In this document: one piece after another, positions 1 to 46,866 of the stretch
Numbering within the stretch: position 1 is the stretch's first letter
How the letters are laid out: each line of letters starts with the position of its first letter
NCBI GenBank assembly: GCA_964650185.1
Contig: CAZYRN010000001.1
Coordinates: 46,284-110,283 of the forward strand
Direction of reading: 5' to 3'
Length of the DNA stretch: 64,000 nt
DNA from: an uncultured Pseudomonadales bacterium
GTDB lineage: Bacteria; Patescibacteriota; Microgenomatia; UBA1400; PJMF01
Made by a program: the position numbers and the translations under genes
The notes under the pieces: model-generated
What the model saw: only the letters and a program-made list of their open reading frames with translations
Databases searched by the model: none
What the model was told of the DNA's origin: nothing

Positions 1-270
1 ATAAACAGGAGTGGGAACACAGATAATGTAGACATCTTGATTCTTAAGATCATGCTTGTTGCTGGTGACAATTACCTGGTTATGTTTAAGATACTGCTCA
101 ACATCTTTATCTTGAATTGAAGGTTTGCCGGACCTGATTTCATCAATCTTGTTTTGATTGATCTCATATCCAGTCACCTCATATTTATTGGCCTTATTTA
201 TGGCTATAAAAAGAGGCAATCCTACGTAACCCAGGCCTATCACCGCCACTTTTTCTATTTTCTTTAACAT
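1..270 (-). CDS. UDP-glucose/GDP-mannose 6-dehydrogenase family protein (N-terminal 90 aa only; gene runs off window start)
   Basis: Reverse-strand reading frame starts at ATG 268-270 and stays open to position 1. Translation is MLKKIEKVAVIGLGYVGLPLFIAINKAN..., a Rossmann GxGxxG NAD-binding N-terminus typical of nucleotide-sugar dehydrogenases. Confidence 0.7.
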   Translation of the reverse strand, partial: MLKKIEKVAVIGLGYVGLPLFIAINKANKYEVTGYEINQNKIDEIRSGKPSIQDKDVEQYLKHNQVIVTSNKHDLKNQDVYIICVPTPVY

Positions 271-325
271 AGAAACTCATTATAACCTTATTTCCCTACT
301 TTCTTAAGCTCTATCCGCCTCTTTC

Positions 326-1600
326 GTGTATACTGAAAAACAGATGAATCTCTCGGCTAAAAAATCTGCTTTATTGAACTCTACTGGCATAAAATTAATC
401 AGCTATTCTGTTATCGGCGATATGGCTGCGAGTTTAATGGGTGGTTTAGCAACTATTCTTATCTCAAGACGACTTGGCCCAGCCGGCTTTGGTCAGTTTA
501 GTGCTGGATTTGCCCTGACCCAAATCCTGGTCCGAGTTAATGACCTGGGTTTGAGTATGGCGACTACCAAGTTTATTGGTCAGTCAAAAGATAGACTACA
601 GCAGACATCATTCTATAGTCTGATTACTCGATACCGACTGATGCTAAGTGTGGTGATTGTTGCTTTGGGCCTGCTAGCAACAGGTTTTTTAGTCTCAGGT
701 GAGAATAAGACTATTTTAATGGCAGCAGTGGTAGTAACGCTGGCTACAGTTTATTTTGAACATCTTCGTTTTTCCCTCCAGGCTTTACAGTGGATTAAAC
801 AGTCCAGTGTGGCAAATGTGTTTCAGGGCATGATTAAGATGTTGGTGGCGAGCGCGGCTTTCTTTTCCCAAGGTATAAATGTTTTAGTTGTTTTTATGGC
901 ATATATGACTGCACCACTGGTACCTGTAATATTTCGGAGGTATTTTTCTCCAGCCTGGTTAAAAAATTCACTAGTTCAGATTAATTCTAAACAAAAATTT
1001 GCTGTTCACGGTTTTCTCAAACACTCAGCGGTAGCGGTGGTAAGTGCTGGAATTGTTGAAAATTTTGATGTCTTGCTGGCGGCATATTTTTTAAATGATT
1101 ATCAAACAGGCTTATTAGGAGGAGTGACAAAAATTGCGTTGTTTCTTTATATTATCGCTTACGCCATTGGTAATGTTCTTAATCCCAGAGTAGCCGGATA
1201 CACCAGGATTCAATTGAGAAGTTATTATAAGAAAGCTCTCGGCGTGTTAGTGATGGCTTTAGGTGGATTCTTGGTAGCATGGCCGTTAGCGCCATATTTA
1301 ATTACTTGGACAATCGGAGTCGAATATCTGCCTGCCCTAAATGTATTGAGAATTCTGTTGGCCTCTGGGTTCATAAGCATTGGTTTGATGCCGTTTCAAG
1401 CCATCTTCTACGCATTAACTAAAGACTGGTACTTTTCCTTAACTGGCCTGGCTCAAGTGTTGGTCATTGTCGGTGGCGGATTCCTTTTAACGCCAATATT
1501 TGGCATTGAGGGTTTGGCCTGGCTTAGACTGGCTTCAAGGGGAATGTTATTAGTGTTGGCATTGATGGGAAGTGGTTATTTCTTGAGTAAGAAAAATTAA
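326..1600 (+). CDS. Wzx/MOP-family polysaccharide biosynthesis exporter (flippase-like), polytopic membrane protein
   Basis: 424-aa ORF, hydrophobic throughout with about 12 predicted TM helices. The architecture matches oligosaccharide flippases. GTG start at 326; an alternative ATG lies at 344. Confidence 0.55.
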   Translation: MYTEKQMNLSAKKSALLNSTGIKLISYSVIGDMAASLMGGLATILISRRLGPAGFGQFSAGFALTQILVRVNDLGLSMATTKFIGQSKDRLQQTSFYSLITRYRLMLSVVIVALGLLATGFLVSGENKTILMAAVVVTLATVYFEHLRFSLQALQWIKQSSVANVFQGMIKMLVASAAFFSQGINVLVVFMAYMTAPLVPVIFRRYFSPAWLKNSLVQINSKQKFAVHGFLKHSAVAVVSAGIVENFDVLLAAYFLNDYQTGLLGGVTKIALFLYIIAYAIGNVLNPRVAGYTRIQLRSYYKKALGVLVMALGGFLVAWPLAPYLITWTIGVEYLPALNVLRILLASGFISIGLMPFQAIFYALTKDWYFSLTGLAQVLVIVGGGFLLTPIFGIEGLAWLRLASRGMLLVLALMGSGYFLSKKN

Positions 1601-2508
1601 CCCCACAGCTCCACAAAATAATCCACCGTTCTTCTTATTCCAGTCGTGAAGTCCACTTCTGCTGACCAGCCCAACTCTCTTTTAGCTTTACTGGCATCGG
1701 CGGTTAAGACTAAAGGATCTCCTGGGCGGGGGTCAAAGTGCTTAATATGGGGTTCTTTTTCTAAGGCGGTGGCAATGGTGGTAATGACATCCATCACTGA
1801 TTCCGGATGCTCTGTAGATAAATTTAAATAGTGATACTGCTGTGGCTCCCGCTCTATTAGTTCCAATGCCCGCAGGTGAGCACTGACAATATCATCTATG
1901 TAAACGTAATCACGCTCATGCTCGCCGCTGCCCCACACTGTCACCACATCTTCTTCATAAATTTGTTTAATAAATCGCGGAATGGCGTGTGTTTCCGGCT
2001 GATGATGCTCTTCCGGCCCATACAGATTAAAGTAACGCAGCGCCACACCGGTCATGCCGGCTGTTTCGACATATGATCTCAGCAAACCTTCCATCGCCAG
2101 CTTAGTCATGCCATAGGGATTAATCGGCAGTGTTCGATCGTCTTCTTCAATTGGCACCTTAACTGGTTCGCCATAGATAGCAGCACTTGATGAGAAAATG
2201 AACGTTTTTAGGCCATTTAAGCGCATCGCCTCCAAGACAGAAACTGTTCCTGAGATGTTGTAATCGACATATTTTTGCGGTTGCTCGACGGACTCGCCCG
2301 CTTCTATCAAAGATGCTAAATGAAAGACCACGTCCGCGTCTGCAATTAACTCCATCATTTTAGCCGCGTCACGCACGTCAGCGATGATGGTGTCAAATTC
2401 TGGGTTCACTTTTAAATCAATGATTTTCAGCTCGTGACCCGCTTGGGTTAAAGCTCTGCATAAATGTCTGCCTAAAAATCCGGCTCCGCCAGTGACGATA
2501 ATGCGCAT
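1597..2508 (-). CDS. NAD-dependent epimerase/dehydratase (UDP-sugar 4-epimerase GalE-like)
   Basis: N-terminal MRIIVTGGAGFLGRHL (GxxGxxG) and a YxxxK-region / YFNLYGP typical of short-chain-dehydrogenase-type sugar epimerases. 303 aa. Confidence 0.8.
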   Translation of the reverse strand: MRIIVTGGAGFLGRHLCRALTQAGHELKIIDLKVNPEFDTIIADVRDAAKMMELIADADVVFHLASLIEAGESVEQPQKYVDYNISGTVSVLEAMRLNGLKTFIFSSSAAIYGEPVKVPIEEDDRTLPINPYGMTKLAMEGLLRSYVETAGMTGVALRYFNLYGPEEHHQPETHAIPRFIKQIYEEDVVTVWGSGEHERDYVYIDDIVSAHLRALELIEREPQQYHYLNLSTEHPESVMDVITTIATALEKEPHIKHFDPRPGDPLVLTADASKAKRELGWSAEVDFTTGIRRTVDYFVELWG

Positions 2509-2545
2509 ATATTTCCTATCTGTGTATTGCCGCGGCTGGCGGCTG

Positions 2546-3748
2546 TTATGCTACCCAGTATCCTTGAATAAATAGTATTGTATTAAAGATTAGCCAGAAT
2601 GTCGAAAGGACTAACCAGATGATGGCAAGACGGCGGCGCTGCTGGAGTAATTGAGTCATCAAGAGAAAGATGGCGAAGCTGCCCAATAAATAGCGCGGCA
2701 GACTCGAGAAGGTGCCGGTGAGAGTGGGGAGAATGAAGGCGAGGGCGCTAAAGATGACGTAGCTGCGGCGGACTTTGAACCAAGCCCAGATCAGAGCAAT
2801 GGTGCCAAACACACCGGCGAGAAATTCCTGAACATAAGCAAAATACTTTAAATCAATTGGACGAGCGGTTGCTAGAATTTTTAAATATCTCCAAATTACT
2901 TGAGGCAATAAAATAATAGTTTCTTGTCTTCCCGCACCAAATTCCTCTTGAACGTGAAAAAAGTATAGTGGATCGTTAAAAACAATTTTTAAATAAACCA
3001 TATAAGCAATTAAACCAGAGGCACCCATAATAATTATTAATATGTTCTTGTAGTTAGACTTTATAAAGCCGGGAAAATCTACATTTTTGAATAAATATTT
3101 TTGCTCCATAAGTTCCCATACAAGAGCTGGCACAAGAAATACTCCAGTAATTCTAGTTGCAGAAGCTAAAATGGTTAAAAGTGAGGCAGTTAGCCATCTT
3201 CCTTTTTTAGCTTCAATAAAGCACGATAAAACAAAGAATAAAAACATGGCTTCGGTATAAAGTGCATTGAAAAAAAGAGCCGTTGGAAATAAAAACAAAA
3301 CAAGAGTTCCAGTCCACTTTGGAAGTCCTTCAAGCTTTAGAAGATGTTGCCATTTGTATAGAAGGGCCAATGTAAATACAGACGATATTATAAAAAAGGA
3401 TATTTCGAAATGATTAAAAATGAAATTAATGATTCTTAATAATAAAGGGAAAAGTGGAAAAAATGCTTGAATTAATCCAGTTCCCAGATAACCCTTTTTA
3501 GCAATTATTAAATAATGAACACCATCAAAATTCATCCATGAGTATATAGGTTGCGGTAAACTTAAGTTAGCAAGTAATTCAGGATTTGAAAAAGTTGGAC
3601 TGTAAGGAATAAAGATTGACGCTAAAAATGCTGCAATCATTAGTCCAAACTTCCAGGATAGATAGAAACCCAATCGTTGGCCAAAGATCCTCACCAGACC
3701 ATAAAATAGAATTCCGAAGAAAATGATTCCAGAAACACTATTCCCCAC
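2546..3748 (-). CDS. Integral-membrane GT-C type glycosyltransferase, PIG-V/GPI-mannosyltransferase-like
   Basis: 400 aa and polytopic. The motif region NFDGVHYLIIAKKGY...AFFPLFPLLL resembles the PIG-V (GT76) mannosyltransferase family. Confidence 0.45.
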   Translation of the reverse strand: MGNSVSGIIFFGILFYGLVRIFGQRLGFYLSWKFGLMIAAFLASIFIPYSPTFSNPELLANLSLPQPIYSWMNFDGVHYLIIAKKGYLGTGLIQAFFPLFPLLLRIINFIFNHFEISFFIISSVFTLALLYKWQHLLKLEGLPKWTGTLVLFLFPTALFFNALYTEAMFLFFVLSCFIEAKKGRWLTASLLTILASATRITGVFLVPALVWELMEQKYLFKNVDFPGFIKSNYKNILIIIMGASGLIAYMVYLKIVFNDPLYFFHVQEEFGAGRQETIILLPQVIWRYLKILATARPIDLKYFAYVQEFLAGVFGTIALIWAWFKVRRSYVIFSALAFILPTLTGTFSSLPRYLLGSFAIFLLMTQLLQQRRRLAIIWLVLSTFWLIFNTILFIQGYWVA

Positions 3749-3820
3749 CAGTCTCGGCCAGGTTTTCTGGGTAAACTGGGATTTAACTTCATAATTGCCT
3801 GGTTCAAGTTGATAAGCTAG

Positions 3821-5377
3821 CTATCCACCAATCTTATCATTATTGATGTAACTAGCTGGAAAGGTCTGATTTGTATCTTTATCTTTAATGTTGGTTTCCC
3901 AGCCGGCAAAATTCATGGTTGGCTCAATGATGGTGGCAGGCTTATCTACTTGAACTTGATAATGACGTGACGAACCCTGCCAGCGCAGAACCTGAATGTT
4001 AGCGCCTCGATCTTCTTCTAATACAGAGGGGACAGGCTGCCAATCCCGTATCTGATAATCATACCCAACTGGCGTGTTCTCATTTAAAGTTGTGCTGCTT
4101 TGGGTAAATGAGTCGTAATCTAGATTTGTCCGGTGAAAATAATCAATCGGTTTGGCTCGCCAGTGGCCAATCAGCTGAATTATGAGTAACAGCAGCCACA
4201 GCCAGCGGCCTTTAGCCGGTGTTTGCCGCCAAACCCAGACCATCACTGGCACAATAAGTACTGAGAAAAATAATGTTAGTCGCCAGGGAAACTGAATGTA
4301 ATTTGCCAGTGGGATCAACTGCCAGAGGGGGGTAGTGAAAGCTAGCTGAAATAAAATTAAAAGCAACGTTAAAATTACTACCACCCAAAGCCAGGAAAAT
4401 TTCCAATCTGATCGTTTATTAAAAAATCTCACGATCATTAAGACCAGAGCCACCAGCAACATCGTCCACTGAAGTAAGCCCATGCCAAAAGAAAGTCCAT
4501 CTACTGACCCCGGATAAGAAAAACCAAATCGAAGTGGTGCAAACAAAAGTTGTGACCAAGTCGCAAAATGACGCGTAAACTCATTTGATAGATTTGCCTG
4601 ATCTAGAACCACTAAGGATTTCTCTGCCAAAGCTGGTAGCCAAAACCATAACGAAAGCGCTAGGCCGCTCAAAATCATCCCACCTAATGACAACCAACTG
4701 CGCCAGTTTTTGCTCAGCCGCAGTGAAGCATAAAGCAAGATGATACCCATGCCAAATAAAACCGCCACATTATGTGATAAGAAAAACAAACCAAACAGCA
4801 GTGTCGGCCAAATCAACTTTGGCCAGTTTCGCCACTTTCGTAAATCCATCTGCCACTCGCCTGCTCTCACCTGCTCTACCAGCCGCAGCAGCCAGGGTAA
4901 AAAGGCCATCGCCATCACCTCGCCAATGCTGCCGCGATAAATAATCGCCGTCAATAAATAAGGAGATAATGAAAAAAAGACTAATCCCAGCCATCTTTCA
5001 TAAAATTTAAACTGCCATGATTTAAGCCACTCATTCATTCCCCACAAGCCAAAAACTAGAAATCCCACCACCAGCAGTTTAAAAGTTAGTTCATAACTAA
5101 CACCCGCGATTGAAAATGGTAAACTCAAGATGTTTGCTAGTGGATAGTTATAGTTAAAGACCGGGTAGCCATAGTGATTGACTAGATTGGGGGCAAAACG
5201 AGGCGGAATTTGACCTTCCCTTACGGCCACCTTGTAGTTAGCAAATCTAGCTAAATGATTTTCACCATCATGAGTATAAGGAAAGCCAGCGTGAAAATAA
5301 TCATTCACATTCAACAGCGTCAGCAATAATATAAAAATTAAGAGTGGAAATTTGGCAAGAAAAGACAGCAATTTCAT
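3821..5377 (-). CDS. Large polytopic membrane protein, GT-C-like (PTPS-related/uncharacterised glycosyltransferase family)
   Basis: 518 aa with N-terminal FHAGFPYTHDGENHLARFANY followed by more than 10 TM helices. Its start overlaps the upstream gene's stop (ATGA). Confidence 0.35.
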   Translation of the reverse strand: MKLLSFLAKFPLLIFILLLTLLNVNDYFHAGFPYTHDGENHLARFANYKVAVREGQIPPRFAPNLVNHYGYPVFNYNYPLANILSLPFSIAGVSYELTFKLLVVGFLVFGLWGMNEWLKSWQFKFYERWLGLVFFSLSPYLLTAIIYRGSIGEVMAMAFLPWLLRLVEQVRAGEWQMDLRKWRNWPKLIWPTLLFGLFFLSHNVAVLFGMGIILLYASLRLSKNWRSWLSLGGMILSGLALSLWFWLPALAEKSLVVLDQANLSNEFTRHFATWSQLLFAPLRFGFSYPGSVDGLSFGMGLLQWTMLLVALVLMIVRFFNKRSDWKFSWLWVVVILTLLLILFQLAFTTPLWQLIPLANYIQFPWRLTLFFSVLIVPVMVWVWRQTPAKGRWLWLLLLIIQLIGHWRAKPIDYFHRTNLDYDSFTQSSTTLNENTPVGYDYQIRDWQPVPSVLEEDRGANIQVLRWQGSSRHYQVQVDKPATIIEPTMNFAGWETNIKDKDTNQTFPASYINNDKIGG

Positions 5378-6420
5378 GGAGTTAACACTTGCTGATATAC
5401 TTTCATCGTTTGTTTGGCAGTTTTCAGCCAGCTAAACTGCTGACTCCACTGATAGGCAGCTCTCACTTTTTCCGCCCGCTTCGTTTTGGACCAACTCAGT
5501 ACTTTTTCGACCCCTTGAGCAATTGACTCTGCGTCAGTTTCTGTGAAAACTGCATGCTCGCCACCAACTTCAATTAATGAAGAGGTGTTAGTCGCTACAA
5601 CTGGCGTCATGCATTGCATCGCCTCTAAAACCGGCAAGCCAAAGCCTTCATATAAAGAAGGCTGGATATAACATAAGGCGCCAGTATAAAAGGCGCTCAG
5701 TTCATCAGTTTCGCCGCTCTGCAGATCAGGCACAAACTTAACTTTATCTGCCACATCGCTGAGCGCCAGCTGGGTTTCAATCCACTGCCACTCTGGAATC
5801 TCTTGTTCTTGAAAGCCCTGACCGACACAAACCAGTTTAGTATGCCGCGGCAGATATCTGACCGCTTTAATTAATTGAGGAATGTTTTTGTTGTAATTTA
5901 TATCGCCCACATACAACACATAATTTTTGGGTAGTTGATACTTGCGCTTCACTGACCTGACCTCATCTTCACTTGCATATTTCAGAGCTGGGTTTGCTGC
6001 TAACTGAATGACGTGAATTCTATCCTGATCAACGCCTAGGTGTTCAATGATATCTGACTTAGATGCCGCTGAATCAGTGATGACCGCCTGAACAGTTTTT
6101 AGAGCAGCTTTTTGTTTAATAAATTTAGCTTTACCTTTGATACCCGGTGGATAATGTTCTGGAAACTTAAGAGGAATGACGTCGTGAACAGTGACCACCG
6201 TCGGCTGCCTTCTCACCATGGGTAAGGTAGAAAAAAACAAATCAAAGTAGGGATAATGAATTAAATCAGGCTGGAACTGGTCTGCTTCCTGCGTACCGGA
6301 GCGAACAATTTGATGATCGTTTAGTTCTTCTAAGAATTGCACCAGCAATCTGGTATAAGCACCAATACCTCTAATCGCATGACCTGTATCGAGGGGAGAA
6401 GTATCAATTAGTATTTTCAT
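5374..6420 (-). CDS. Glycosyltransferase family 4 (GT-B, retaining 'group 1' glycosyltransferase)
   Basis: C-terminal EGFGLPVLEAMQCMTPVVATNTSSLIEV (EX7E motif). 348 aa. Ends with TGA overlapping the next gene's ATG. Confidence 0.8.
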   Translation of the reverse strand: MKILIDTSPLDTGHAIRGIGAYTRLLVQFLEELNDHQIVRSGTQEADQFQPDLIHYPYFDLFFSTLPMVRRQPTVVTVHDVIPLKFPEHYPPGIKGKAKFIKQKAALKTVQAVITDSAASKSDIIEHLGVDQDRIHVIQLAANPALKYASEDEVRSVKRKYQLPKNYVLYVGDINYNKNIPQLIKAVRYLPRHTKLVCVGQGFQEQEIPEWQWIETQLALSDVADKVKFVPDLQSGETDELSAFYTGALCYIQPSLYEGFGLPVLEAMQCMTPVVATNTSSLIEVGGEHAVFTETDAESIAQGVEKVLSWSKTKRAEKVRAAYQWSQQFSWLKTAKQTMKVYQQVLTP

Positions 6421-6423
6421 AAA

Positions 6424-7203
6424 TTAGGCAGGCTGATGTTGGAGCTCCCACAACTTCAAGTATGACATAGGAAAGTAAAGTGCGCTCATGACGCTGAAAA
6501 TAAAACCAGCTACTCCATCTACGAAGCCTTTGTGGCGGAAGAAGAGTAGGGTAAAAGTTTTAAGTGGCTGCCAGATCATAAACTTGATGGTGTTGCTGGC
6601 ATTTACAGATGTTTTGCTCTCAGCTAACTGCTGCGCTTTAAAAGAAGTATAGGTATTCCATTTGCGTAAGTAATCCTGAAAACTGGGGTTGGCGTAGTGA
6701 ATTAGGTGACCTTCTGCCCAAGCCACTTCGCCGTCAACTTGCATTTGCTCATGCACATCCTGCTGAGGCAGTTTGGCTTGGCCATTAATAAAAAGTCTAA
6801 TAACAGGATCTGGATATTGGCCAGTCTTTTTGAAAAAGTGACCTAAAAATAGATTCTTTCGTTTTAGATACCAAGCAACTGGGCCCTGATAATCTGCAGC
6901 CGTAATCAAACGATGCACATGACTAATAAACTTCTTCAGCTCTTCATCAACTACTTCATCGGCATCCAGCTGCAGTACTAGCTCTCCCTTGGCTTTATCC
7001 ATCGCCATTTGCTTGTTAATGTGAAAGTTGGGTTTGTTGGTGGTGGTAATGACTCTGGCACCGTACTTTTTGGCAATCTCCTGAGTTCGATCTGTTGAAC
7101 TGCCATCAACAACCACGATCTCATCAGCCAGTTTTGTCACTGCCTCTAAACAACGACCAATATTTGCTTCCTCATTATAAGTAGCTAAAACAACGCTGAT
7201 CAT
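6424..7203 (-). CDS. Glycosyltransferase family 2, polyprenyl-phosphate sugar synthase-like (DPM1/ArnC-like)
   Basis: MISVVLATYNEEANIGRCLEAV...VVDGSSTDRTQEIAKKYG...LDADE: the classic GT2-A N-terminus with a DxD motif. 259 aa. Confidence 0.8.
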   Translation of the reverse strand: MISVVLATYNEEANIGRCLEAVTKLADEIVVVDGSSTDRTQEIAKKYGARVITTTNKPNFHINKQMAMDKAKGELVLQLDADEVVDEELKKFISHVHRLITAADYQGPVAWYLKRKNLFLGHFFKKTGQYPDPVIRLFINGQAKLPQQDVHEQMQVDGEVAWAEGHLIHYANPSFQDYLRKWNTYTSFKAQQLAESKTSVNASNTIKFMIWQPLKTFTLLFFRHKGFVDGVAGFIFSVMSALYFPMSYLKLWELQHQPA

Positions 7204-7207
7204 ATGC

Positions 7208-8800
7208 TTAATATTCTCCTCTTTGCCACTGCTGGCCGTTCCAGTAAATTAGGACGCTTTCTTTCTCCTGGCGATCCTCTGCTTCGGCAATAAAGTGATA
7301 GCGACCAACTCGCTCGCCATAACTAAAGCCTATTCTATCAGGGAGCTGCCTGATGTTGGAGTCATGAAACTCTGCCGGCGGCACTCGCAGGTACCACGCC
7401 AGCAAAATGTATTGATAACCCTCGGGATCTACTATCGCCACTTCTTGGTTGGGGTAGTCTTGGGCAGTAGCTTGAATAATTTGATCAAATCCGGGTTTAA
7501 ATGGTTTTTGCTGCAGTGGATATTGAGTAAAGTACTGCCAGAAATAGTTAAGACTTGCCGCCAAATAAATACTGCCCACCAGGCCAATTAATGCGTATTT
7601 TTTAACATACGAGTGTTTGAGAAAGTAATAATAGAGTTCTTGCAACCCGATGACAGCCATCACCACCATCAGTACCATAAAAAATAAACTCCGCGTCGCG
7701 TGTGGTGCATCAACTGTAATCAGGGCTGGAATCAAGGAGCACAATAGTAAAAACAAGAGCCCAATATTTTTCACCAACAGCTGTTTTTGATCCAATTTCA
7801 ACAATCGCCATTGTTTTTTAAGCATTAATTTAATTGATTGAATTACCAGGCTGAAAATACCCCAAACAGACAGGAAATAAATCGGGAGCGTCAAGTGACC
7901 TAATCTCGGGATGCTGTGCCAAGGATGACCGCCAGCTCCGGTCAGTAAAAAGCTTGGCATAAAACTCGCCACTAAGTTCCTAGCCATCACTTGAAAATAA
8001 TAAACATATTTATTGCCTAAGATAGTTTGCCACACACCGTCAAACTGCGTTCGATAATTAATCGTTTCCTGCCAAACGGACTCATCTTGAAAGATAGTAA
8101 TACCGCTTTTTTGGGCAGACAACGATAGCAGCTGGTAGCCTGCCAATCCACCAATTAAGATTATCCCCACCATCACCCGTAGCCAGTTTTGCTGATGAGC
8201 TATCCGCCATCCGAGAATAAACAACAGCACAAAAGGTAACAATATTAAAGGGGTGTTGTAGGTAAAAACAGCCAATAATAAGAGGATTAAACCAACAAAA
8301 TCTGCTAGTAATCGGTCGGAATTAATCAAAATAGTAATCGCTCCCAAAAACAATGCTAATGCCAGCATCGCCTCAAAAGCCATCCGTGAAAAGAAAAATA
8401 AGACTGGGGTGCTGCCGATGAAAAATGCTAAGAGCAGAGACCATTTCCGACTAAAGTTTAAGCCTCGCCCAAAAAAGTACCCAATCAAAACTAAAGCACT
8501 GCCGGCCAAGGCAGCTGGCAGCCTGACTACCCAATCATTTAAGCCGAATACCTTTAAAAGTGGGATTAAACTAAAAATATAACCTGGCAATTTGTAATCG
8601 CCAAATGACTCATATGTTAATGGCCACTCTCGTCCCCACTCATCTCGGCCAGTTTCCAGTAATGAGTAGGCGTTATATGCTAAAGCAGCCTCATCACGGT
8701 TGAGAATTTGTGGTAAAGAGCCAAGTTGAAATAATCTCAAAGCAAAGCTGATCACCACTATAAAGATTAATAATAGCTTCGTCGTATGTTTACTTAGCAT
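7208..8800 (-). CDS. ArnT/PMT-like GT-C glycosyltransferase (GT39/GT83 family), paralog 1 of 4
   Basis: N-terminal loop motif NRDEAALAYNAYSLLETGRDEWGREWP...FGDYKLPGYIF (the DE motif plus GDYK) and more than 10 TM helices. Confidence 0.7.
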   Translation of the reverse strand: MLSKHTTKLLLIFIVVISFALRLFQLGSLPQILNRDEAALAYNAYSLLETGRDEWGREWPLTYESFGDYKLPGYIFSLIPLLKVFGLNDWVVRLPAALAGSALVLIGYFFGRGLNFSRKWSLLLAFFIGSTPVLFFFSRMAFEAMLALALFLGAITILINSDRLLADFVGLILLLLAVFTYNTPLILLPFVLLFILGWRIAHQQNWLRVMVGIILIGGLAGYQLLSLSAQKSGITIFQDESVWQETINYRTQFDGVWQTILGNKYVYYFQVMARNLVASFMPSFLLTGAGGHPWHSIPRLGHLTLPIYFLSVWGIFSLVIQSIKLMLKKQWRLLKLDQKQLLVKNIGLLFLLLCSLIPALITVDAPHATRSLFFMVLMVVMAVIGLQELYYYFLKHSYVKKYALIGLVGSIYLAASLNYFWQYFTQYPLQQKPFKPGFDQIIQATAQDYPNQEVAIVDPEGYQYILLAWYLRVPPAEFHDSNIRQLPDRIGFSYGERVGRYHFIAEAEDRQEKESVLIYWNGQQWQRGEY

Positions 8801-8809
8801 TGCTCATCA

Positions 8810-10495
8810 TTATAGCGGCTTAATGTGAATAATCTGATAGTCAGCACCATTATTACCATAAAAATCCTTTGCTCTCACCACCTCAAGTTCACCAGCTTTT
8901 GCTTCAAGACGTTCTCTAATCTTGTTTGGACTATCAATTAAAACCACCCCATTTTCCATCTCGGCAAAATTTTTCCATTTATAAGGAGTTGTGTGGTATT
9001 TTTGAAAGGTTTTCAAATGAAAATTACTGGATTGCAGTTGTTGAATTTCTGCACCCGTATAATCGCCGTAGGCTAGAATCCACAAATAAAGCTTGTCATC
9101 CACTCCCGATAAATAAACTTCATCAGCCTGATCATGATATTCCTCTAAAGTTATGGCCATCTCTCGGTAATTCTGTTGCCAATCAGGAGCAGACTTTTCC
9201 GGGTAAATATTGAAGTAGTACCAGAAAAACTCACCAGCCATGATTAGCCAGATAAGTCCTAGTAAGATAGTTACTCGCCGCCATTTTAACCAAAAATAAC
9301 TGATTCCAGAGCTGATGATAATTGCTAATGGCACCAAACCATTCAGTGATCTCAGTGCATGCGGAGTAGTTTCTGGTACAGCAGCAGGAATCAGGGCAGC
9401 CAACCACCAACAAATTAAAATTATGCTAACTCGGCGCTGTTTATTAAATAACTGATAAAGCCCAGCGATGAAAAACGGTAGCAGTGGTAACAAAAATAAG
9501 CCATGTTCTCCAGTGCCGTGACGTAGATTGCTATCACCACTCACAAAGAGATAATTAAGACTCAGATGATCAAAAACATTATTAGCTAACTCTCTTAATA
9601 ACAACAAATGCCGGTGAAAGAAAAAGCGATCTATTATGCTTTCTCCTGCCAGTTGGCGGTAAATATTACTCGTTAAAGGATAATTGAAATAATTTAGGAC
9701 TGAGTTAGTGACATATCTAAAAACCTGAGATTCATGGTAAAACTCTGATTTAATCATCGGAAGCAGTCCTAATCCAAAAATTACTAACGGCAAGACGAGG
9801 TGTAAACCAATTTGTGATATCGTCGCTCTAAGAGTTAACTTTTTTCTTTTAGCCAAAAGTATTTTTGGCAGCAGCCAGCTTAAACCCACCCCCACTAAAA
9901 CCACCGGCCACACAAATCTCACCGAGAAATAGGTATAGGTAGCCAAAATACCAAAGAAAGTGCCGCCTAAAAGCCAGCCTAAGTGCCGTCTGCTTTTGAG
10001 CAGCATCCAGACTGAGATACTGAACCAAAGCTGGGCCACATGTCCTTCGAAAGCTGTCCGAGAAAACATCATCGCCCACGGCGATAAAGCTAATACCAGC
10101 ATGGTCATCAGTTGGGTGCGGCGTTCATTAAATAACTGCCGAGCAATTAGACCACCCATGAACACTGTGCCCAATCCAGCTAAGGCACTTGGTAATCTTA
10201 ATGCCCACTCAGTAACGCCGAATAATTTAACACTGACAGATGCCAACCAGATATAAACTGGCAGCTTGTAATCTCCATAAGAAGGATATAGCAACTGGTA
10301 CCAAGACCGACCATGCATATCTGCCCCTGTTTGACTAACCGTTTTTGCATCTACCAGCATCGCTGCTTCATCCCAATATAATGAAGTTGGTACCTGACCC
10401 AGCTGATAAAACCTGGTCGCGATCGCGATAATTATGACAACGGCAAAACTTAGCTGCCACCGATATTTTTGAAAAAAATGTTTCATCATTTTCAT
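8810..10495 (-). CDS. ArnT/PMT-like GT-C glycosyltransferase, paralog 2 of 4
   Basis: YWDEAAMLVDAKTVSQTGADMHGRSW...YGDYKLPVYIW. Same architecture as the neighbouring paralogs. 561 aa. Confidence 0.7.
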   Translation of the reverse strand: MKMMKHFFQKYRWQLSFAVVIIIAIATRFYQLGQVPTSLYWDEAAMLVDAKTVSQTGADMHGRSWYQLLYPSYGDYKLPVYIWLASVSVKLFGVTEWALRLPSALAGLGTVFMGGLIARQLFNERRTQLMTMLVLALSPWAMMFSRTAFEGHVAQLWFSISVWMLLKSRRHLGWLLGGTFFGILATYTYFSVRFVWPVVLVGVGLSWLLPKILLAKRKKLTLRATISQIGLHLVLPLVIFGLGLLPMIKSEFYHESQVFRYVTNSVLNYFNYPLTSNIYRQLAGESIIDRFFFHRHLLLLRELANNVFDHLSLNYLFVSGDSNLRHGTGEHGLFLLPLLPFFIAGLYQLFNKQRRVSIILICWWLAALIPAAVPETTPHALRSLNGLVPLAIIISSGISYFWLKWRRVTILLGLIWLIMAGEFFWYYFNIYPEKSAPDWQQNYREMAITLEEYHDQADEVYLSGVDDKLYLWILAYGDYTGAEIQQLQSSNFHLKTFQKYHTTPYKWKNFAEMENGVVLIDSPNKIRERLEAKAGELEVVRAKDFYGNNGADYQIIHIKPL

Positions 10496-10497
10496 AT

Positions 10498-12183
10498 TTA
10501 TTTATTCACGACCTGCACTTGCCAAACTACTTCTCCTCTTAAATTTTCAATAGGGGAAGAAACATTACTTAAAGCGTAACCTAACCCGGTCAGATTCTCA
10601 GCAAAACCTGGAGATGAAACCAGAATAGCTTGATCGCTTTCCACGCTATTAGTACTATTTATAAATTTCATATTTTCGAAGCTGGTTAGCTCGCTTTGAT
10701 CTCGAGAACTTGTTGGTGCTGCTGCTTGAACACGCCTGGGATCAGTTTGAGAAAAGAACCAATAATACATGGCCGGCCGGCCGTATTCTCGAGTGATAAA
10801 AACTGGTAGATCTGGATACTCTTCCTGATAGCGATTAATCTCTGACACCATTTGTTGATAGCCATACTGCCATTCTTGACTGTAAAGTTTGGGATATACT
10901 TGGCTATAAAATCGCCAAAATATGCTTAGCTCAAGTAAATATCCCCCCAGCAGCGACACCATTACTACTTTTTTGATAACCGGCTGCTTAATAGTTTCCC
11001 ACAACCATAAGATCCCCATTGAGATCACTAGTAACAACACTGGCATCATGGGTAAAATTCTTAAAGCGTGCGGGGTCGCGTTAGTTAAAGCTGCTGGCAA
11101 CACCCCCACCACCGCCCAAACTAATAATACAAAATGTTCTGAGCGCCACCTCTTAAACAATGCAAAGATTCCCAAGACAAGCACAACGAACTCCAAGTGA
11201 TAAAGTTGTCCAAAATATTGAATGGAGTGACGAGGATTATTATCGCCAGCTACAAAAAGAAAGCTGCCGTGAAAATGAGTTAATGCATTGGTAAGAATTT
11301 CTTTGCCAAAGATCAAATAACGATGGTAAATAATTCTGGCCAAAATTGAATTGCCTGCTTCAGCTTTGAGCTGGTTGCTTTTTTCAATTAAGGCTAGATC
11401 AGAAAAAATACTTGTTTCAGCTAAGCGCTGCGATAATTGTGGAGTACCCATAGCTCTCAATAACGGAAGCAACATGATCAATGCCACTATTGCAGCTAGT
11501 GCTAGATATTTGAAGTTATCCCAACTTAATTTTTCTACGATTTTATTTTTTTCCTGCGCTCGATTATTAGATATAAGCATCAGCCACCAGCCAGCTAAAG
11601 TTAATCCCAGCAAGGGCGCTATTACTCGGGCTGCATGATAAGCGTACATTGACAAAGCCAATAGGACAGCTCCAGCAATCACCCATTTTTTGCCTTTAAA
11701 AAATAACACTACTCCCCACAAAATTAAGGCAGTCGCTAAATTAACTTCCCAACCCGCTCTTGAAAATTGAATTGCCCAAGGTGATATCGCCGTTACCACC
11801 ATAGCCACCAGCGCCAATCTTTCATCCTTAACTCTTTTGGCCAACTCACCCATACCCAACACAATCATCACTCCACTGAGCACGGCTGGTAATCTCACCG
11901 CCCATAAATTCAAACCCACCAGTTTAATAAACGGCACAATGCCATAAAAATAAAGTGACGGCTTCCAATCGCCAAATGACTCAAAAGCAACCACGGGCAG
12001 AAAATTCCCATGATGATCTAGACCAGTTTTTAAAATTGAGTAGGCGTCATAACCCAAAGCAGCTTCTTCCCAATAAAGAGACGGCGGAAATTTATCCAAG
12101 CCAACAATCCGCAACAGCAATGCTCCCAGCAGGATAATACCTGTTAGTAACCAATAATGCTGTTTAATAAATTTCAGATTCAT
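10498..12183 (-). CDS. ArnT/PMT-like GT-C glycosyltransferase, paralog 3 of 4
   Basis: YWEEAALGYDAYSILKTGLDHHGNFLP...FGDWKPSLYFY. 561 aa, polytopic. Confidence 0.7.
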   Translation of the reverse strand: MNLKFIKQHYWLLTGIILLGALLLRIVGLDKFPPSLYWEEAALGYDAYSILKTGLDHHGNFLPVVAFESFGDWKPSLYFYGIVPFIKLVGLNLWAVRLPAVLSGVMIVLGMGELAKRVKDERLALVAMVVTAISPWAIQFSRAGWEVNLATALILWGVVLFFKGKKWVIAGAVLLALSMYAYHAARVIAPLLGLTLAGWWLMLISNNRAQEKNKIVEKLSWDNFKYLALAAIVALIMLLPLLRAMGTPQLSQRLAETSIFSDLALIEKSNQLKAEAGNSILARIIYHRYLIFGKEILTNALTHFHGSFLFVAGDNNPRHSIQYFGQLYHLEFVVLVLGIFALFKRWRSEHFVLLVWAVVGVLPAALTNATPHALRILPMMPVLLLVISMGILWLWETIKQPVIKKVVMVSLLGGYLLELSIFWRFYSQVYPKLYSQEWQYGYQQMVSEINRYQEEYPDLPVFITREYGRPAMYYWFFSQTDPRRVQAAAPTSSRDQSELTSFENMKFINSTNSVESDQAILVSSPGFAENLTGLGYALSNVSSPIENLRGEVVWQVQVVNK

Positions 12184-13783
12184 GAGCTGCTCTTATTTCA
12201 GTGGGTAGATATATCTTAAACCTAATGCTACCATCACTGCCATAGATAACTCGATCTGCAGCTTTAGTTGGCAGATCATCAGCACCACTGGCTACGACGA
12301 TAGTATGAGGGCGAAGTAAATCTCCTAAATTGATTTGATTAGTAAACTCATACTTATGTAGTGAGCCGCCTTGATACCAAATGGGATTAGTTTTTCTGAC
12401 AAACAGCGCATAGATGTAAGGCTGACCATAATCGTCAGCAAAAATAATTTTATCAACTTGTTCTTCATAAGCCCGAACATAGGTTAAGGCATCTAGGTAA
12501 CCTTCTTTAAAATCATCCGCCGAATTTTTGGCAAATACCTTGTAATAGTGCTGCTGATAACTGAGAAAAAACAAACCGTGAGCTAAAAATATCAGCCCAA
12601 TAACGGCAGCTTGAATTTGATTGGCCTGGCCACGAGTGCTTTTAATTTTCTGATTGAGTGGCCACTTATGAATTTGTTTGAGCCATAAATCAAAGCCTGT
12701 TACAGCCAATATTATAAACCCCGGTAGTGCTAATAAAGCTCGATTGCTATGCGGCACTTCTGAGCCAATTACTGCTGGCACTAAGCCAATAAAGATCCAT
12801 CCGCCTGCAAATAGTAGCAGTCGACGCCTGGTCTTAATCAAATAGTAGCTACCGACAATGACTAGTAGGAGCGTTGTGGGCAACAGCACTCCCCAAGTAC
12901 CAGGTCCATGACGCAGAGTAGTGGTCTCTCCAAAAATTAGAAATGCCGGTGACAGGTGCAACCAAAGATTTCTCAGCAAAGTGATGATTAATTCACTGCC
13001 GTTCAGTGAATCAAAAATAGTTACTCCAGCCCGTTCTAAGCCGTGTCCAACGAGCGCGTCTTTAATCAGAGGGTAGACTAAAACCAACCCCAACCCACCA
13101 CTTACCGCTACAACTTTTTTTCTATCCCAGAGTAGCTGTCGATATTTAATGAGCAACACTAAGCCAAATAACGGCACAAATACCTTGGTACTGTGATAGG
13201 TGTAAAGCGAAGCTGCCCACATGACTACGCTGCCTAGTAAATAAAGGCTGGTCTTCAGCTGGCTTGTTTTTGAGTTAATAAATTTAAAGAAAAAATAACT
13301 GCCCCAAATAATCATCGTCAATGCTAAACCAGATTCAAAGCCAGCTCGGGAAAAGTGGAGATGCCAGGGACTGAGTGCCAGCAACCACCCCGCTGCTAGA
13401 GATAAAGCCTGGTTTTTGGTTAATTCCAGCGTCAGCAGCATCATGCCCCAAACTGCTAGAACTCCGCCAATCACAAACGGCACTCGCACCGCGGTTAAGT
13501 TCATACCTAGAGCAAAAGTAAAGATGCCATTTAAATAGATGGCCAGAGGCGCTTTATAATCTCCGAATGATCTAAAAGAGACCGGCAGTCTTTGCAGCCA
13601 CTCGTCTCGTCCTGTTTCTAAAATTGCATAACCATTGTAGCCAATGGCGGCTTCATCCCAAGTCATCCCTGCCGGCACCTTGCCTAACTGATAAAGTCTT
13701 AATCCAAGAGCCAATAGAATGATCAAAATTGCCCATAACTTGTACCATTTTTTGGTCAATAAAAAAGACATCTTTAACATCAT
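12164..13783 (-). CDS. ArnT/PMT-like GT-C glycosyltransferase, paralog 4 of 4
   Basis: TWDEAAIGYNGYAILETGRDEWLQRLP...FGDYKAPLAIY. 539 aa. Its end overlaps paralog 3 by 20 nt. Confidence 0.7.
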   Translation of the reverse strand: MMLKMSFLLTKKWYKLWAILIILLALGLRLYQLGKVPAGMTWDEAAIGYNGYAILETGRDEWLQRLPVSFRSFGDYKAPLAIYLNGIFTFALGMNLTAVRVPFVIGGVLAVWGMMLLTLELTKNQALSLAAGWLLALSPWHLHFSRAGFESGLALTMIIWGSYFFFKFINSKTSQLKTSLYLLGSVVMWAASLYTYHSTKVFVPLFGLVLLIKYRQLLWDRKKVVAVSGGLGLVLVYPLIKDALVGHGLERAGVTIFDSLNGSELIITLLRNLWLHLSPAFLIFGETTTLRHGPGTWGVLLPTTLLLVIVGSYYLIKTRRRLLLFAGGWIFIGLVPAVIGSEVPHSNRALLALPGFIILAVTGFDLWLKQIHKWPLNQKIKSTRGQANQIQAAVIGLIFLAHGLFFLSYQQHYYKVFAKNSADDFKEGYLDALTYVRAYEEQVDKIIFADDYGQPYIYALFVRKTNPIWYQGGSLHKYEFTNQINLGDLLRPHTIVVASGADDLPTKAADRVIYGSDGSIRFKIYLPTEIRAAHESEIY

Positions 13784-37532: not shown

Positions 37533-38249
37533 TTAAATATTTAACTCTCGATTACGGGCGAAAACAGTCGCTTCATACCATGATTCAAATGTCCCCGTAT
37601 CAAACCACTTTCCTTCAACAAAGGCCACATCCAGCTGTCCCTCTGCTAAATATAGGTTGTTTATGTCGGTAATCTCTAATTCTCCTCGATCTGATGGAGT
37701 GAGATTGCGAGCCTTCTCAACCACCGTGTTGTCATAAATATACAGGCCAGTCACTGCATAATCAGATTTGGGCTGTAATGGTTTCTCTTCAATCGAAAGA
37801 GCGCGCTGCTGGTCATCAAACTCTACCACGCCAAATCTTTCAGGATCTTCAACTTTTTTAGCAAAAACCCGGCCGCCTGATTTAAAACTTTGAATAGCTG
37901 GTGCAAAATCATCTTCAAACAGGTTATCGCCTAAAATCATCGTCACTGCATCATCACCAATAAAATCATCACCAATGAGAAATGCCTGAGCTAAACCTTT
38001 TGGCTCATCTTGAATTTCGTAGGTAAAATCACAACCAAACTCTTTACCGCTGCCTAATAGCTTCAGAAAATCACCCGCATGGTCTGGAGCAACAATAATT
38101 AAAATATCTTCAATGCCAGCTTTTATTAATGTTTCCAGCGGAAAATAAATCATCGGCTTGTTGTAAATTGGCAGCAGCTGCTTACTAGTCACTCTAGTTA
38201 AGGGCTTGAGTCGTGATCCTGAGCCGCCTGCTAAAATAATGCCTTTCAT
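37533..38249 (-). CDS. Sugar-phosphate nucleotidyltransferase (short RmlA/glucose-1-phosphate thymidylyltransferase-like)
   Basis: [38 protein letters not shown] (G-x-G-x-R nucleotide-binding signature). 238 aa. Confidence 0.8.
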
Positions 38250-43046: not shown

Positions 43047-43217
43047 CATACACGCATATACACGAACATACATTGATATACGTTTACATAGCTTCCTTCA
43101 TAATTTCGTCAATTTTTTTGAATAAATTTTTTATTAGTGACTAAACAGGCGTTGAGGAGGATGGAGACAGGAGTTTATTTCAATAAAGCTTTTAATGAAT
43201 ACAGATGAGTATTATTT

Positions 43218-46861: not shown

Positions 46862-46866
46862 GGTCT

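Follow-up and report, generated by a model that had tools for sequence, protein, structure and literature searches.

A conserved gene cluster encoding four GT-C-fold paralogs in a glycan locus of a Microgenomates-type Patescibacterium

A glycan locus spanning at least 24 kb, in a Microgenomates-type Patescibacterium, has its right-hand part at the left end of the window, the whole 64,000-nucleotide stretch analysed here. The organism is an uncultivated, ultra-small bacterium of the CPR. The gene cluster is real, tightly packed and glycan-building. Its best explanation, to which a confidence of about 0.55 was given, is that it builds an envelope glycoconjugate by assembly in two compartments, with GT-C enzymes using lipid-phosphate sugars; beyond fold and synteny, all of this is inferred.

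The ORF list agreed with the first-pass annotation as to gene content, order and strands in 1–13,783. The locus is nevertheless longer than the 13.8 kb given there, as 10 kb or more lies past the left edge of the window, in the flank of the source contig (L087). The features are as follows.

1–270, minus strand: nucleotide-sugar dehydrogenase, N-terminal 90 codons (translation; full gene 426 aa)
326–1600, plus strand: Wzx-like (MOP superfamily) flippase, 424 aa (Pfam Polysacc_synt)
1597–2508, minus strand: NAD-dependent sugar-nucleotide 4-epimerase-like SDR, 303 aa (Pfam Epimerase)
2546–3748, minus strand: F400, 400-aa polytopic GT-C-type protein (PIG-V/PMT_2/GT87 matches, mostly of orthologs)
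3821–5377, minus strand: G518, 518-aa polytopic GT-C-type protein (PTPS_related/AftD matches of orthologs)
5374–6420, minus strand: cytoplasmic GT4 (GT-B fold), 348 aa (Pfam Glycos_transf_1, Glyco_transf_4)
6424–7203, minus strand: GT2-259, soluble or peripheral GT-A enzyme, 259 aa (Pfam GT2 at residues 3–98)
7208–8800, minus strand: paralog A, GT-C fold, 530 aa, RDEAA variant (homology to B, C and D)
8810–10495, minus strand: paralog B, GT-C fold, 561 aa (Pfam PMT_2)
10498–12183, minus strand: paralog C, GT-C fold, 561 aa, WEEAA/GDWKP variant (structure modelled)
12164–13783, minus strand: paralog D, GT-C fold, 539 aa (homology to A, B and C; 20-bp overlap with C)
60908–62404, plus strand: membrane GT2, 498 aa (Pfam Glyco_trans_2_3)
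62441–64000, plus strand: polytopic membrane protein, partial, 520+ aa (ORF cut by the right window edge)

Nine genes make up the minus-strand unit D-C-B-A-GT2-GT4-G518-F400-epimerase, in which D is first and the epimerase last, and six of them encode GT-C-type polytopic membrane proteins. The ends had been described as mostly overlapping. Two of the eight junctions do overlap (−20 and −4 bp), but the other six have gaps of 2–72 bp. The flippase gene is convergent with the epimerase gene, with a 4-bp overlap, and a second minus-strand operon begins with the dehydrogenase gene. The ORFs scanned across the window and left flank included no priming phosphoglycosyltransferase, Wzy-type polymerase, LCP ligase or small GtrA-type flippase.

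The gene order of the unit recurs in species-representative genomes. D and C are adjacent in 67 of 83 related loci, and C-B-A-GT2-GT4 is contiguous in 30 of the 61 with enough downstream sequence. Related locus L004 holds one ortholog per window gene, at 49–55% identity for the GT-C genes and 66–74% for the GT2, GT4 and epimerase. Several fusions join parts of the cluster: G518 with F400 (L004 and L045), a cytoplasmic GT2 with the N-terminus of D (800–840-aa forms in L027, L029, L049 and others), GT2-259 with the GT4 (L063, L076) and a G518-like protein with Wzx (L017).

Paralogs A–D, proposed to be 530–560 aa long and to have the GT-C fold, measure 530–561 aa, and the fold is supported by a predicted structure, paralog C being the one modelled. 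Pairwise identity is 24–29% over 440–530 aa (E 1e-25 to 1e-58; 1e-25 to 1e-39 for A against B, C and D). The same array was assembled independently from SRR7082982, SRR7082966 and SRR7082976. Given this divergence and the three sequencing runs, A–D are, as had been suggested, old duplicates and not an assembly artefact. They are ancient, with their order kept in dozens of related species. As judged from sequence, they fall into four separate orthogroups, each monophyletic (A, 42 sequences; B, 44 sequences; D, 56 of 61 orthologs in a pure clade) and each with its own signature residues, the group-specific positions being 38, 39, 54, 75 and 318.

The shared motif W(D/E)EAA…G.D…G…FGDYK.P reported for the four proteins is only approximate: A has RDEAA, B YGDYK and C FGDWKPS, while D is without the second G. 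The invariant core reads (D/E)-E-A-A…T-G-x-D…S-x-G-D-x-K. Conservation is about 95–100% in every orthogroup at (D/E)39-E40, D56, S69-x-G-D72-x-K74, R142, E146, H372 and R375, and the candidate catalytic residues are about 100% conserved in orthogroup A. All of A–D keep the acidic and basic residues located in the first outward-facing loop and where TM2 starts.

Family assignment is looser than the label "ArnT/PMT-family" implied. Paralog B alone passes Pfam PMT_2 (37.0 bits, cutoff 26.1; PMT, 18.7 bits, is below cutoff). A and D have no Pfam match of their own, although their L004 orthologs carry PMT_2. No MIR domain was found in any paralog at E ≤ 0.01 in the Pfam search, and a deep profile of the family found no solved GT-C by sequence. 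The model matched OST (STT3B), ArnT and PMT alike, with ArnT, STT3B and ALG12 scoring as well as PMTs; further fold matches were Emb, AftA, AftB, AftD and PimE. Because the fold fits STT3B, ArnT and PMT, structure does not fix the donor type (monophosphate sugar or diphosphate oligosaccharide).

The two other large membrane proteins had also been called GT-C-like, which holds at ortholog level. F400 falls short of PIG-V (20.9 bits, cutoff 22.4); among 18 orthologs, seven match PIG-V (best 1.3e-8), four PMT_2, three GT87 and one ALG10, so that it can be assigned through them as a polytopic GT-C-type protein, loosely PIG-V/PMT_2/GT87-like. Orthologs of G518 (n = 23) match PTPS_related in six cases (best 7e-16) and GT-C_AftD in three, and distant paralogs pass PF10131. 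HHalign of G518 against the C family gave a probability of 48% (E 1.8e-4) with a common SP..R..E core. From its orthologs, G518 appears to be a polytopic GT-C-type protein of the PTPS_related/AftD-N type with a C-terminal extracytoplasmic domain.

The GT4 scored 93.6 bits against Glycos_transf_1 and 51.5 bits against Glyco_transf_4; its orthologs (44–70% identity) always directly follow the GT2. GT2-259, conserved at 54–73% identity across the clade, is a GT-A glycosyltransferase, soluble or peripheral, of a SunS/GmaR-like and also LgtF/WaaE-like type, and resembles soluble GT2s that act on peptides or glycans. Among solved structures, the GmaR GT domain is closest to it in sequence (4.7e-13). 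With its AF2 model (pLDDT 89), Foldseek placed SunS/ThuS first at 2e-13, with TarS and WrtF also leading, and ArnC, GtrB and DPMS at ranks 34–50. The first-pass annotation had taken this enzyme for a DPM1/ArnC-like polyprenyl-phosphate sugar synthase. That role was rejected: hydropathy predicts no TM helix, the match to DPMS, ArnC and AglJ is confined to the first ~50–90 residues, SunS/ThuS rank first, and fusions to the GT4 occur.

A better candidate for the synthase lies beyond the window, about 1.3 kb from its left edge: a 306-aa GT2 whose gene comes immediately after that of the dehydrogenase, in the neighbouring operon and thus outside the nine-gene unit. It has two C-terminal TM helices and solved relatives in DPMS (5e-14) and ArnC (3e-11), and GtrB aligned over residues 2–292. 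Its top five NCBIfam models are AglJ, PpgS, Dol-P-hexose transferase, ArnC and PgfS, all scoring below the equivalog cutoffs. PpgS/AglJ-like homologs are linked in at least 27 of the 83 related loci, a count bounded by the 10-kb flanks, several directly after the epimerase; for the short GT2s linked in relatives, PpgS is the closest match. The proposal that a GT2-made lipid-phosphate sugar feeds the GT-C enzymes is thus plausible, but not with the GT2 directly upstream as its source.

The left flank encodes further GT2 and GT4 enzymes. The full dehydrogenase gene (L087 8665–9945) extends past the window edge, and its product passes the NCBIfam NDP-sugar dehydrogenase subfamily (384.6 bits). 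Among equivalogs, all below cutoff, UDP-ManNAc dehydrogenase, WecC and TviB are closest, ahead of UDP-Glc dehydrogenase. The epimerase (Pfam Epimerase, 208.8 bits) reached 211.9 bits against GalE, below the 262.3 cutoff. Related solved structures are, among others, those of UDP-Glc 4-epimerases and entry 6zl6, the B. cereus UDP-GlcA 4-epimerase, and its orthologs (58–75% identity) occupy the same position in the locus. The flippase passes Polysacc_synt (35.2 bits, cutoff 28.2) with nine TM segments predicted by hydropathy.

A processive GT2 and a fifth GT-C had been noted at 60.9–64 kb. The GT2 (Glyco_trans_2_3, 29.2 bits, cutoff 27) has one N-terminal and two C-terminal TM helices and a QxxRW-type motif, QLKRW; no solved relative was found by sequence. 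Its neighbor has eight predicted TM segments and no Pfam or NCBIfam match, and aligns only moderately with the C family (HHalign probability 67%, E 5e-5, 269 columns; aligned pairs DHKTPL/GDWKPS, LPW/SPW and PYPHY/TPHAL). By this alignment it is probably a further GT-C.

In the favored two-compartment scheme, GT2-259, the GT4 and the left-flank GT2/GT4 enzymes would assemble a lipid-linked glycan in the cytoplasm from nucleotide sugars shaped by the dehydrogenase and epimerase, and the Wzx-like flippase would export it. In parallel, the 306-aa DPMS/ArnC/GtrB-class GT2 would load one sugar onto polyprenyl phosphate. Outside the membrane, each of A–D may pass on that sugar, or related lipid-phosphate sugars, to its own position or acceptor, while G518 and F400 could act on the flipped glycan by elongation or attachment. 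Candidate acceptors are a polymer linked to the wall, a lipoglycan and a surface protein. Gtr-type systems offer an established precedent for the general combination of a lipid-phosphate sugar synthase, a flippase and a GT-C (PMC11127046).

It is unlikely that A–D are instead PMT-like O-glycosyltransferases with different protein-substrate ranges, acting on proteins that the CPR cell secretes or carries in pili or an S-layer, possibly as hetero-dimeric pairs D-C and B-A by analogy with Pmt1-Pmt2. PMTs carry a DE motif, and the loop-1 acidic pair (D/E)-E is likewise conserved here; PMT and PMT_2 are the sole Pfam families matched by the paralogs, D and C are almost always adjacent, their genes overlapping, and the linked GT2-259 is closest to the peptide- or protein-glycosylating GmaR and SunS/ThuS. 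Nevertheless, the paralogs have no MIR domain at the above threshold, ArnT, STT3B and ALG12 equal the PMTs in fold score, the cluster lies amid polysaccharide-type genes (Wzx, GT4, several GT2s, G518/F400), and no candidate target protein is encoded within the nine-gene unit.

More doubtful still is OST- or ligase-like en-bloc transfer, in which the GT-C proteins would polymerise or attach a flipped polyprenyl-diphosphate oligosaccharide built by GT2/GT4 enzymes and exported by Wzx. The linkage of Wzx-type flippases and several soluble GT2/GT4 genes to the array is consistent with it, as are the G518-like–Wzx and GT2–D fusions. However, WW(D/E)xG, the marker motif of STT3/PglB/AglB, is absent from all 286 family sequences examined, the sequence-level match is to PMT_2 and not STT3, no priming phosphoglycosyltransferase was found across the ~74 kb scanned, and a polyprenyl-monophosphate-class GT2 is linked instead. 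For G518 and F400 specifically, such transfer is plausible. That some paralogs are non-catalytic scaffolds, flippase-associated factors or degenerate copies is very improbable: A and D, which have no Pfam match, weakly match the NCBIfam model "flippase activity-associated protein Agl23" (31–33 bits, cutoff 126), but the full candidate catalytic and phosphate-binding set is ~95–100% kept across dozens of species and each paralog is retained as a separate orthogroup, a pattern that decaying copies would not be expected to show.

The two-compartment reading was compared with known systems. For the lipid A aminoarabinose pathway, the match to ArnT (GT83) is not significant by sequence and is lost with a deeper profile, no genes for ArnA, ArnB or ArnD turned up, and a lipid A acceptor is not expected in this organism. 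In three-component systems, a GT2 charges polyprenyl phosphate, the sugar is exported and a polytopic GT-C glycosylates a glycan outside the membrane (PMC11127046; see also PMC5836110). Like the GtrA/GtrB/Gtr*-type systems and Gram-positive counterparts such as CsbB-YfhO, the locus links a DPMS/ArnC/GtrB-class GT2 to GT-C enzymes. Those systems have one GT-C, whereas four conserved paralogs and two other GT-C types occur here; only flippases of the Wzx/MOP type were found and none of the small GtrA-/SMR type, and by sequence the GT-C proteins match no solved member. The Gtr type is a variable seroconversion module, whereas this cluster is a conserved core feature of its clade.

The Rgt system comprises ArnT-like GT-C enzymes (RgtA, B, C and D) and the GT2 donor synthase RgtE, and its paralogs add the same lipid-phosphate-borne sugar to different acceptor positions. 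The donor is prenyl-phosphate-GalA, whose synthesis involves a dehydrogenase and a 4-epimerase. In Rhizobium leguminosarum, RgtA and RgtB add GalA to Kdo (PMC4402001), and Brown et al. 2012, a study cited in PMC9393093, has the gene set rgtA-E in its title. Going by these descriptions, the present locus has a similar set: a sugar dehydrogenase and a 4-epimerase-like SDR are linked to a polyprenyl-phosphate-class GT2 and to multiple ArnT-like GT-C enzymes. The Rgt enzymes, however, act on a diderm's LPS core and lipid A, while no LPS genes were seen at this locus, and UDP-HexNAc dehydrogenases are nearer relatives of its dehydrogenase than UDP-Glc dehydrogenase is.

The host is not an actinobacterium, and the likeness to actinobacterial machineries drawn in the first-pass annotation holds as analogy only. 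Those compared were Ppm1 with Pmt O-mannosylation, embC-embA-embB, Mpt/Aft (LM/LAM, arabinogalactan) and PpgS with Rv3779. They have tandem GT-C paralogs with different acceptors, fed by polyprenyl-phosphate sugars outside the membrane of a monoderm-type envelope. The locus resembles them in its Emb/AftA/AftB/AftD/PimE fold matches, the AftD GT-C domain matched by G518 orthologs and the PpgS-like short GT2s linked in relatives. The pathway type is known, and the cluster is an uncharacterised member of it from an understudied phylum, not a new kind of system.

The tandem paralogs A, B, C and D and the genes that follow them on the minus strand are a good candidate for a core pathway by which one large class of CPR makes its envelope glycan. 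An ORF map reproduced the gene list and gene order of the first-pass annotation, whose observation is thereby confirmed; its interpretation is supported in part. As seen in the source contig (logan:SRR7082982_186; left flank, L087 1-9945), the glycan locus extends at least 10 kb leftwards past window position 1.

Starting at 270 and reading leftwards, minus strand: partial nucleotide-sugar dehydrogenase (ORF map)
Plus strand: Wzx-like protein, 424 aa (Pfam Polysacc_synt, 35 bits)
13783 down to 1597, minus strand: nine-gene unit with close spacing (ORF map), listed next in order of transcription
12164-13783, minus strand: D, 539 aa
10498-12183, minus strand: C, 561 aa
8810-10495, minus strand: B, 561 aa
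7208-8800, minus strand: A, 530 aa
6424-7203, minus strand: GT2, 259 aa (GT2-259)
Next in the unit, minus strand: GT4, 348 aa
3821-5377, minus strand: G518, polytopic membrane protein
2546-3748, minus strand: F400, polytopic membrane protein
Last in the unit, minus strand: epimerase-type SDR, 303 aa
13865-14926, divergently transcribed, directly upstream of D in this genome: DeoC/LacD-family aldolase gene
Left flank (L087): complete dehydrogenase, 426 aa
L087 7748-8668, left flank: 306-aa GT2
Left flank (L087): two GT4s
Left flank (L087): further PMT_2-type GT-C, 554 aa
Left flank (L087): TuaG/PglI-like GT2
Left flank (L087): asparagine-synthase-like (AsnB-like) amidotransferase, 586 aa
Left flank (L087): second Wzx-like flippase gene

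Because the junctions within the unit measure only -20 to +72 bp, the nine genes fit a single transcription unit. GC content was about 42% throughout, and a consensus scan for promoters and terminators performed no better than chance (33 promoter-like sites against 33.3 expected). In most relatives, the stretch right upstream of D is occupied by an extra block. It consists of soluble GT2s (about 300 aa and about 275 aa), often together with a Wzx, a GT4 and a GT-C of the PTPS_related type (for example L006 3726-8346, L005 674-6201, L012/L020). In this genome the aldolase gene takes the place of that block.

Pfam by itself is weak for A-D. With the PMT_2 model (PF13231, cutoff 26.1 bits), B scored 37.0 and C 20.4, and A and D gave no match. 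PF13231 is carried by the orthologs of A and D in a closer relative (locus L004) and, among the matches listed, by about one-sixth of the C homologs. A profile of the four paralogs searched against PDB sequences reached ArnT at E 0.48 only, and a 39-sequence profile of C-type orthologs found no solved GT-C and no ArnT up to E 10; its single match, a phosphatase, was spurious. Significant sequence similarity to ArnT (CAZy GT83) was thus not found. The question of the GT-C fold is settled by the predicted structure. The AlphaFold model of C, calculated from the 39-sequence alignment (pLDDT 92.7, pTM 0.93), resembles solved GT-C enzymes in three dimensions, and its best 35 Foldseek matches were all of this type. 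Since STT3B (23.3), ArnT (22.9), Pmt4 (22.5) and ALG12 (22.0) match the model indistinguishably, the fold assigns no subfamily.

The loop motif proposed earlier, W(D/E)EAA…G.D…G…FGDYK.P, was approximately right: A has RDEAA, B has YGDYK, C has FGDWKPS, and D is without the second glycine. The invariant core reads (D/E)-E-A-A ... T-G-x-D ... S-x-G-D-x-K, followed by P..FSR...E, RH and PH..R. In each of the four orthogroups, (D/E)39-E40 and D56 are 97-100% conserved; the model places them after TM1 (helix 10-26) and before TM2 (helix 77-89). They would face outward, given the Lys-rich N-terminus. The GT-C hallmark of conserved acidic residues in the first extracytoplasmic loop after TM1 is thus found in A-D. 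Conservation of about 95-100% in all four orthogroups was observed for (D/E)39-E40, D56, S69-x-G71-D72-x-K74, R97, R142, E146, Y182, H372 and R375, and positions 38, 39, 54, 75 and 318 hold signature residues that are fixed within each orthogroup. Such a pattern is what one would expect if all four were active enzymes, each with its own conserved role. They belong to a very large protein family in which no member has been characterised; at E <= 1e-3 the four-paralog profile retrieved 25,364 cluster representatives, and at E <= 1e-30 it retrieved 5,204. Non-catalytic roles of the paralogs are one of three main rivals to the pathway proposed below, and fit poorly with the retention of these residues in every orthogroup.

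A second rival is oligosaccharyltransferase- or ligase-like transfer en bloc, with a diphosphate-linked glycan as donor. STT3B is among the closest folds to C; the WW(D/E)xG motif was absent from 286 of 286 family sequences. A WWDxG motif in the C-terminal domain marks STT3/PglB/AglB, and A-D do not fit the canonical form of that class (CAZy GT66). The third main rival is PMT-like protein O-glycosylation by A-D, possibly as D-C and B-A heterodimers. Pmt4 likewise resembles the model of C; the Pfam PMT model is reached by B only, whose 18.7 bits fall short of the 22.7 cutoff, and no MIR family match was detected in A-D at E <= 0.01. A protein O-mannosyltransferase proper (PMT, CAZy GT39) carries MIR in a large outward-facing loop, and this assignment was rejected. 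Lacking both MIR and WW(D/E)xG, A-D are neither canonical PMTs nor canonical oligosaccharyltransferases. An assembly artefact or recent duplication was dismissed, as the paralogs share only 24-29% identity and the identical array was assembled independently three times, in contigs of three separate sequencing runs.

The same identities, over 440-530 residues (E 1e-25 to 1e-58), agree with the old duplications proposed in the first-pass annotation. Distinct specificities, also proposed there, are supported by the shared conserved residues, by the signature residues and by a neighbour-joining tree of 286 family ORFs, in which A (42), B (44), C (81) and D (56/61) form separate clades.

Homologs at 45-57% identity are almost all from Patescibacteria (Pacebacteria, Woesebacteria, Beckwithbacteria, Microgenomates), so that a comparison with actinobacterial O-mannosylation or arabinomannan assembly holds as an analogy only. 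Those that have a name go by 'glycosyltransferase family 39 protein' or 'ArnT-like'; some record titles among these loci give other taxa and are presumably mislabels. L004 has an ortholog for each window gene with the order kept (identities: D 53%, C 55%, B 49%, A 50%, GT2 68%, GT4 66%, epimerase 74%). ORFs were classified in a set of 83 related loci, of which 80 come from genomes that represent their species. D and C are adjacent in 67 of the 83, and at least four A-D-like genes lie within +-10 kb in 45. Contiguous C-B-A-GT2-GT4 was found in 30 of the 61 loci having enough downstream sequence, and the complete string D-C-B-A-GT2-GT4-G518 in 21 loci. The gene order is kept across dozens of species at a mere 40-55% protein identity.

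The G518 and F400 proteins of the window gave no significant match themselves. Orthologs of F400 match the Pfam families PIG-V (7 of 18, best 1.3e-8), PMT_2, GT87 and ALG10, on which its GT-C assignment is based; HHalign of F400 with the C family was uninformative (probability 6%). Orthologs of G518 match PTPS_related (6 of 23, best 7e-16) and the AftD GT-C domain, and G518 aligns with the A-D family at the invariant SP..R..E core. PIG-V, PMT_2, GT87, ALG10 and the AftD domain are GT-C families, and PTPS_related presumably belongs to the same Pfam clan. With these ortholog matches, six of the nine unit products are GT-C-type. In relatives, G518 and F400 are fused into proteins of 937 and 961 aa (L004 16884-19697, L045 16817-19702), and a cytoplasmic GT2 is found at the N-terminus of D in fusions of 800-840 aa (for example L027 7437-9962). 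Proteins of the GT2-259 type are fused with GT4 (L063 15504-17105, L076 3592-5418), and a G518-like protein with a Wzx-type flippase (L017 1207-4542). As these fusions join cytoplasmic transferases, flippase and GT-C proteins, they tie all three to one common pathway.

The 259-aa GT2 had been proposed to make the lipid-phosphate sugar for A-D. Sequence, hydropathy, model and fold search all argue against it. AglJ, Dol-P-hexose transferase, PpgS and ArnC were matched over approximately residues 2-90 only (17-43 bits), within the generic nucleotide-binding N-terminal half, and DPMS was matched at 1e-4 over residues 2-84 as against 4.7e-13 over residues 2-159 for GmaR, whose GT domain is the best solved sequence relative. 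No TM helix was predicted by hydropathy. In a Foldseek search with the model (pLDDT 89), SunS/ThuS/TarS/WrtF lead, and ArnC ranks 34, GtrB 39 and DPMS 46 (34-50 for the class overall). Its fusion to the cytoplasmic GT4 in some relatives points the same way. Assignment to the DPM1/DPMS, GtrB, ArnC and PpgS class was rejected for want of extended homology, membrane helices and fold neighbours. The two GT2s (about 300 aa and about 275 aa) that relatives encode upstream of D are of the same soluble type, with no TM helices, and were rejected as donor synthases.

The 306-aa GT2, about 1.3 kb beyond the left edge of the window, is a much better candidate, judging by its sequence. It has the near-full-length homology and the C-terminal TM helices (two) of the polyprenyl-phosphate class. 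DPMS was matched at 5e-14, ArnC at 3e-11, GtrB across residues 2-292, AglJ at 126 bits over residues 4-296, and ArnC and PgfS likewise near full length. Its best five NCBIfam matches are all polyprenyl- or dolichyl-phosphate transferases, all short of the equivalog cutoffs, which supports the class without assigning a specific sugar. At least 27 of the 83 loci contain a homologous PpgS/AglJ-like GT2, which begins at or just before the epimerase stop codon in L020, L052 and L014. The earlier idea that a GT2 feeds the GT-C enzymes thus survives; the gene differs and lies outside the window. A-D may use a polyprenyl-phosphate- or polyprenyl-diphosphate-linked sugar donor, for which the linkage to this GT2 is indirect evidence.

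In the pathway that we infer, dehydrogenase and epimerase would shape nucleotide sugars, from which cytoplasmic GT2 and GT4 enzymes would assemble a lipid-linked glycan for export by Wzx. The DPMS/ArnC-class GT2 would produce a polyprenyl-phosphate monosaccharide, and A-D at the outer face would transfer this sugar to four different positions or acceptors. G518 and F400 would extend the flipped glycan or attach it. What the data show directly is the fold, the synteny, the orthology, the residue conservation and the fusions; donor, acceptor and the way the enzymes divide the work belong to the proposed model. The dehydrogenase is nearer to UDP-HexNAc dehydrogenases than to UDP-Glc dehydrogenase; with the AsnB-like amidotransferase nearby, this hints, speculatively, at acetamido-uronic or uronamide sugars. 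Of the Wzx/Wzy pathway, there is one Wzx-like protein in the window and a second in the left flank. The ORFs scanned in window and flank included neither a priming enzyme of the PF00953 or PF02397 type nor a polymerase of the Wzy type; these may be encoded elsewhere in the genome.

The fullest reading, to which we give about one chance in four, is that D-C-B-A with G518/F400 would form a clade-wide, largely extracytoplasmic line that makes a major glycopolymer or lipoglycan of the envelope, specific to the Microgenomates-type CPR lineage, and would be an independently arisen functional counterpart of mycobacterial LM/LAM or arabinogalactan assembly. D-C and B-A would be obligate hetero-oligomers, and the fusions GT2-D, G518-F400 and G518-like-Wzx would let single polypeptides of some species link steps in the cytoplasm with steps at the outer face.

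Elsewhere in the window, a membrane GT2 of 498 aa (60908-62404, plus strand) combines 1+2 TM helices with the QxxRW-type motif QLKRW, with no solved relative by sequence and no NCBIfam match. A partial GT-C-like ORF directly after it suggests a second, different glycan module. An RmlA-like glucose-1-phosphate thymidylyltransferase (37533-38249, minus strand) scored 321 bits, just under the equivalog cutoff of 360; no RmlB, RmlC or RmlD was recognisable adjoining it. The 1592-aa protein at 53249-58027 (minus strand) begins with a sequence resembling a signal peptide, contains many Ig-like/fn3 domains (Big_13, 107 bits) and has hydrophobic helices at its C-terminus, and a sortase-like ORF lies nearby (48900-49478, minus strand; 26.5 bits against a cutoff of 26.6). 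This pair was rejected as an obvious acceptor system, the protein having no LPXTG-like motif and no strongly Ser/Thr-rich tract. A single tRNA-Glu(CUC) at 42974-43047 precedes the lowest-GC stretch of the window (43000-46900; 35-38% against about 42%), which encodes a methyltransferase and several ORFs without family match and may be an island inserted beside the tRNA. A DnaX (clamp-loader tau/gamma) homolog (15914-17545, minus strand) has its ATPase part joined to the C-terminal domain by a long low-complexity linker rich in Ser/Gly/Pro/Lys (approximately residues 345-440).

CPR/Patescibacteria are ultra-small and mostly host-dependent, and their surface cover and its construction are poorly known because almost none are cultivated. 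Literature on CPR/Patescibacteria with glycosyltransferase, GT-C, GT39, ArnT or mannosyltransferase yielded no description of the cluster, which is uncharacterised and strongly conserved and, within a little-studied phylum, represents a pathway of known kind. For heterologous expression, it offers as concrete targets A-D, the candidate 306-aa lipid-phosphate sugar synthase and the invariant E40, D56, K74, R142, E146, H372 and R375. The results are useful to CPR envelope biology and conceptually unsurprising. In the Rhizobium Rgt system, RgtA and RgtB add GalA to Kdo (PMC4402001), and the title of a 2012 paper by Brown et al. names rgtA-E. The cluster is no new kind of system and extends a known theme, tandem GT-C paralogs fed by lipid-phosphate sugars. 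Among the closest functional frameworks are the actinobacterial GT-C machineries and three-component Gtr-type systems (PMC11127046). The Rgt system, with several ArnT-like paralogs and one GT2 donor synthase, is a close framework as well.
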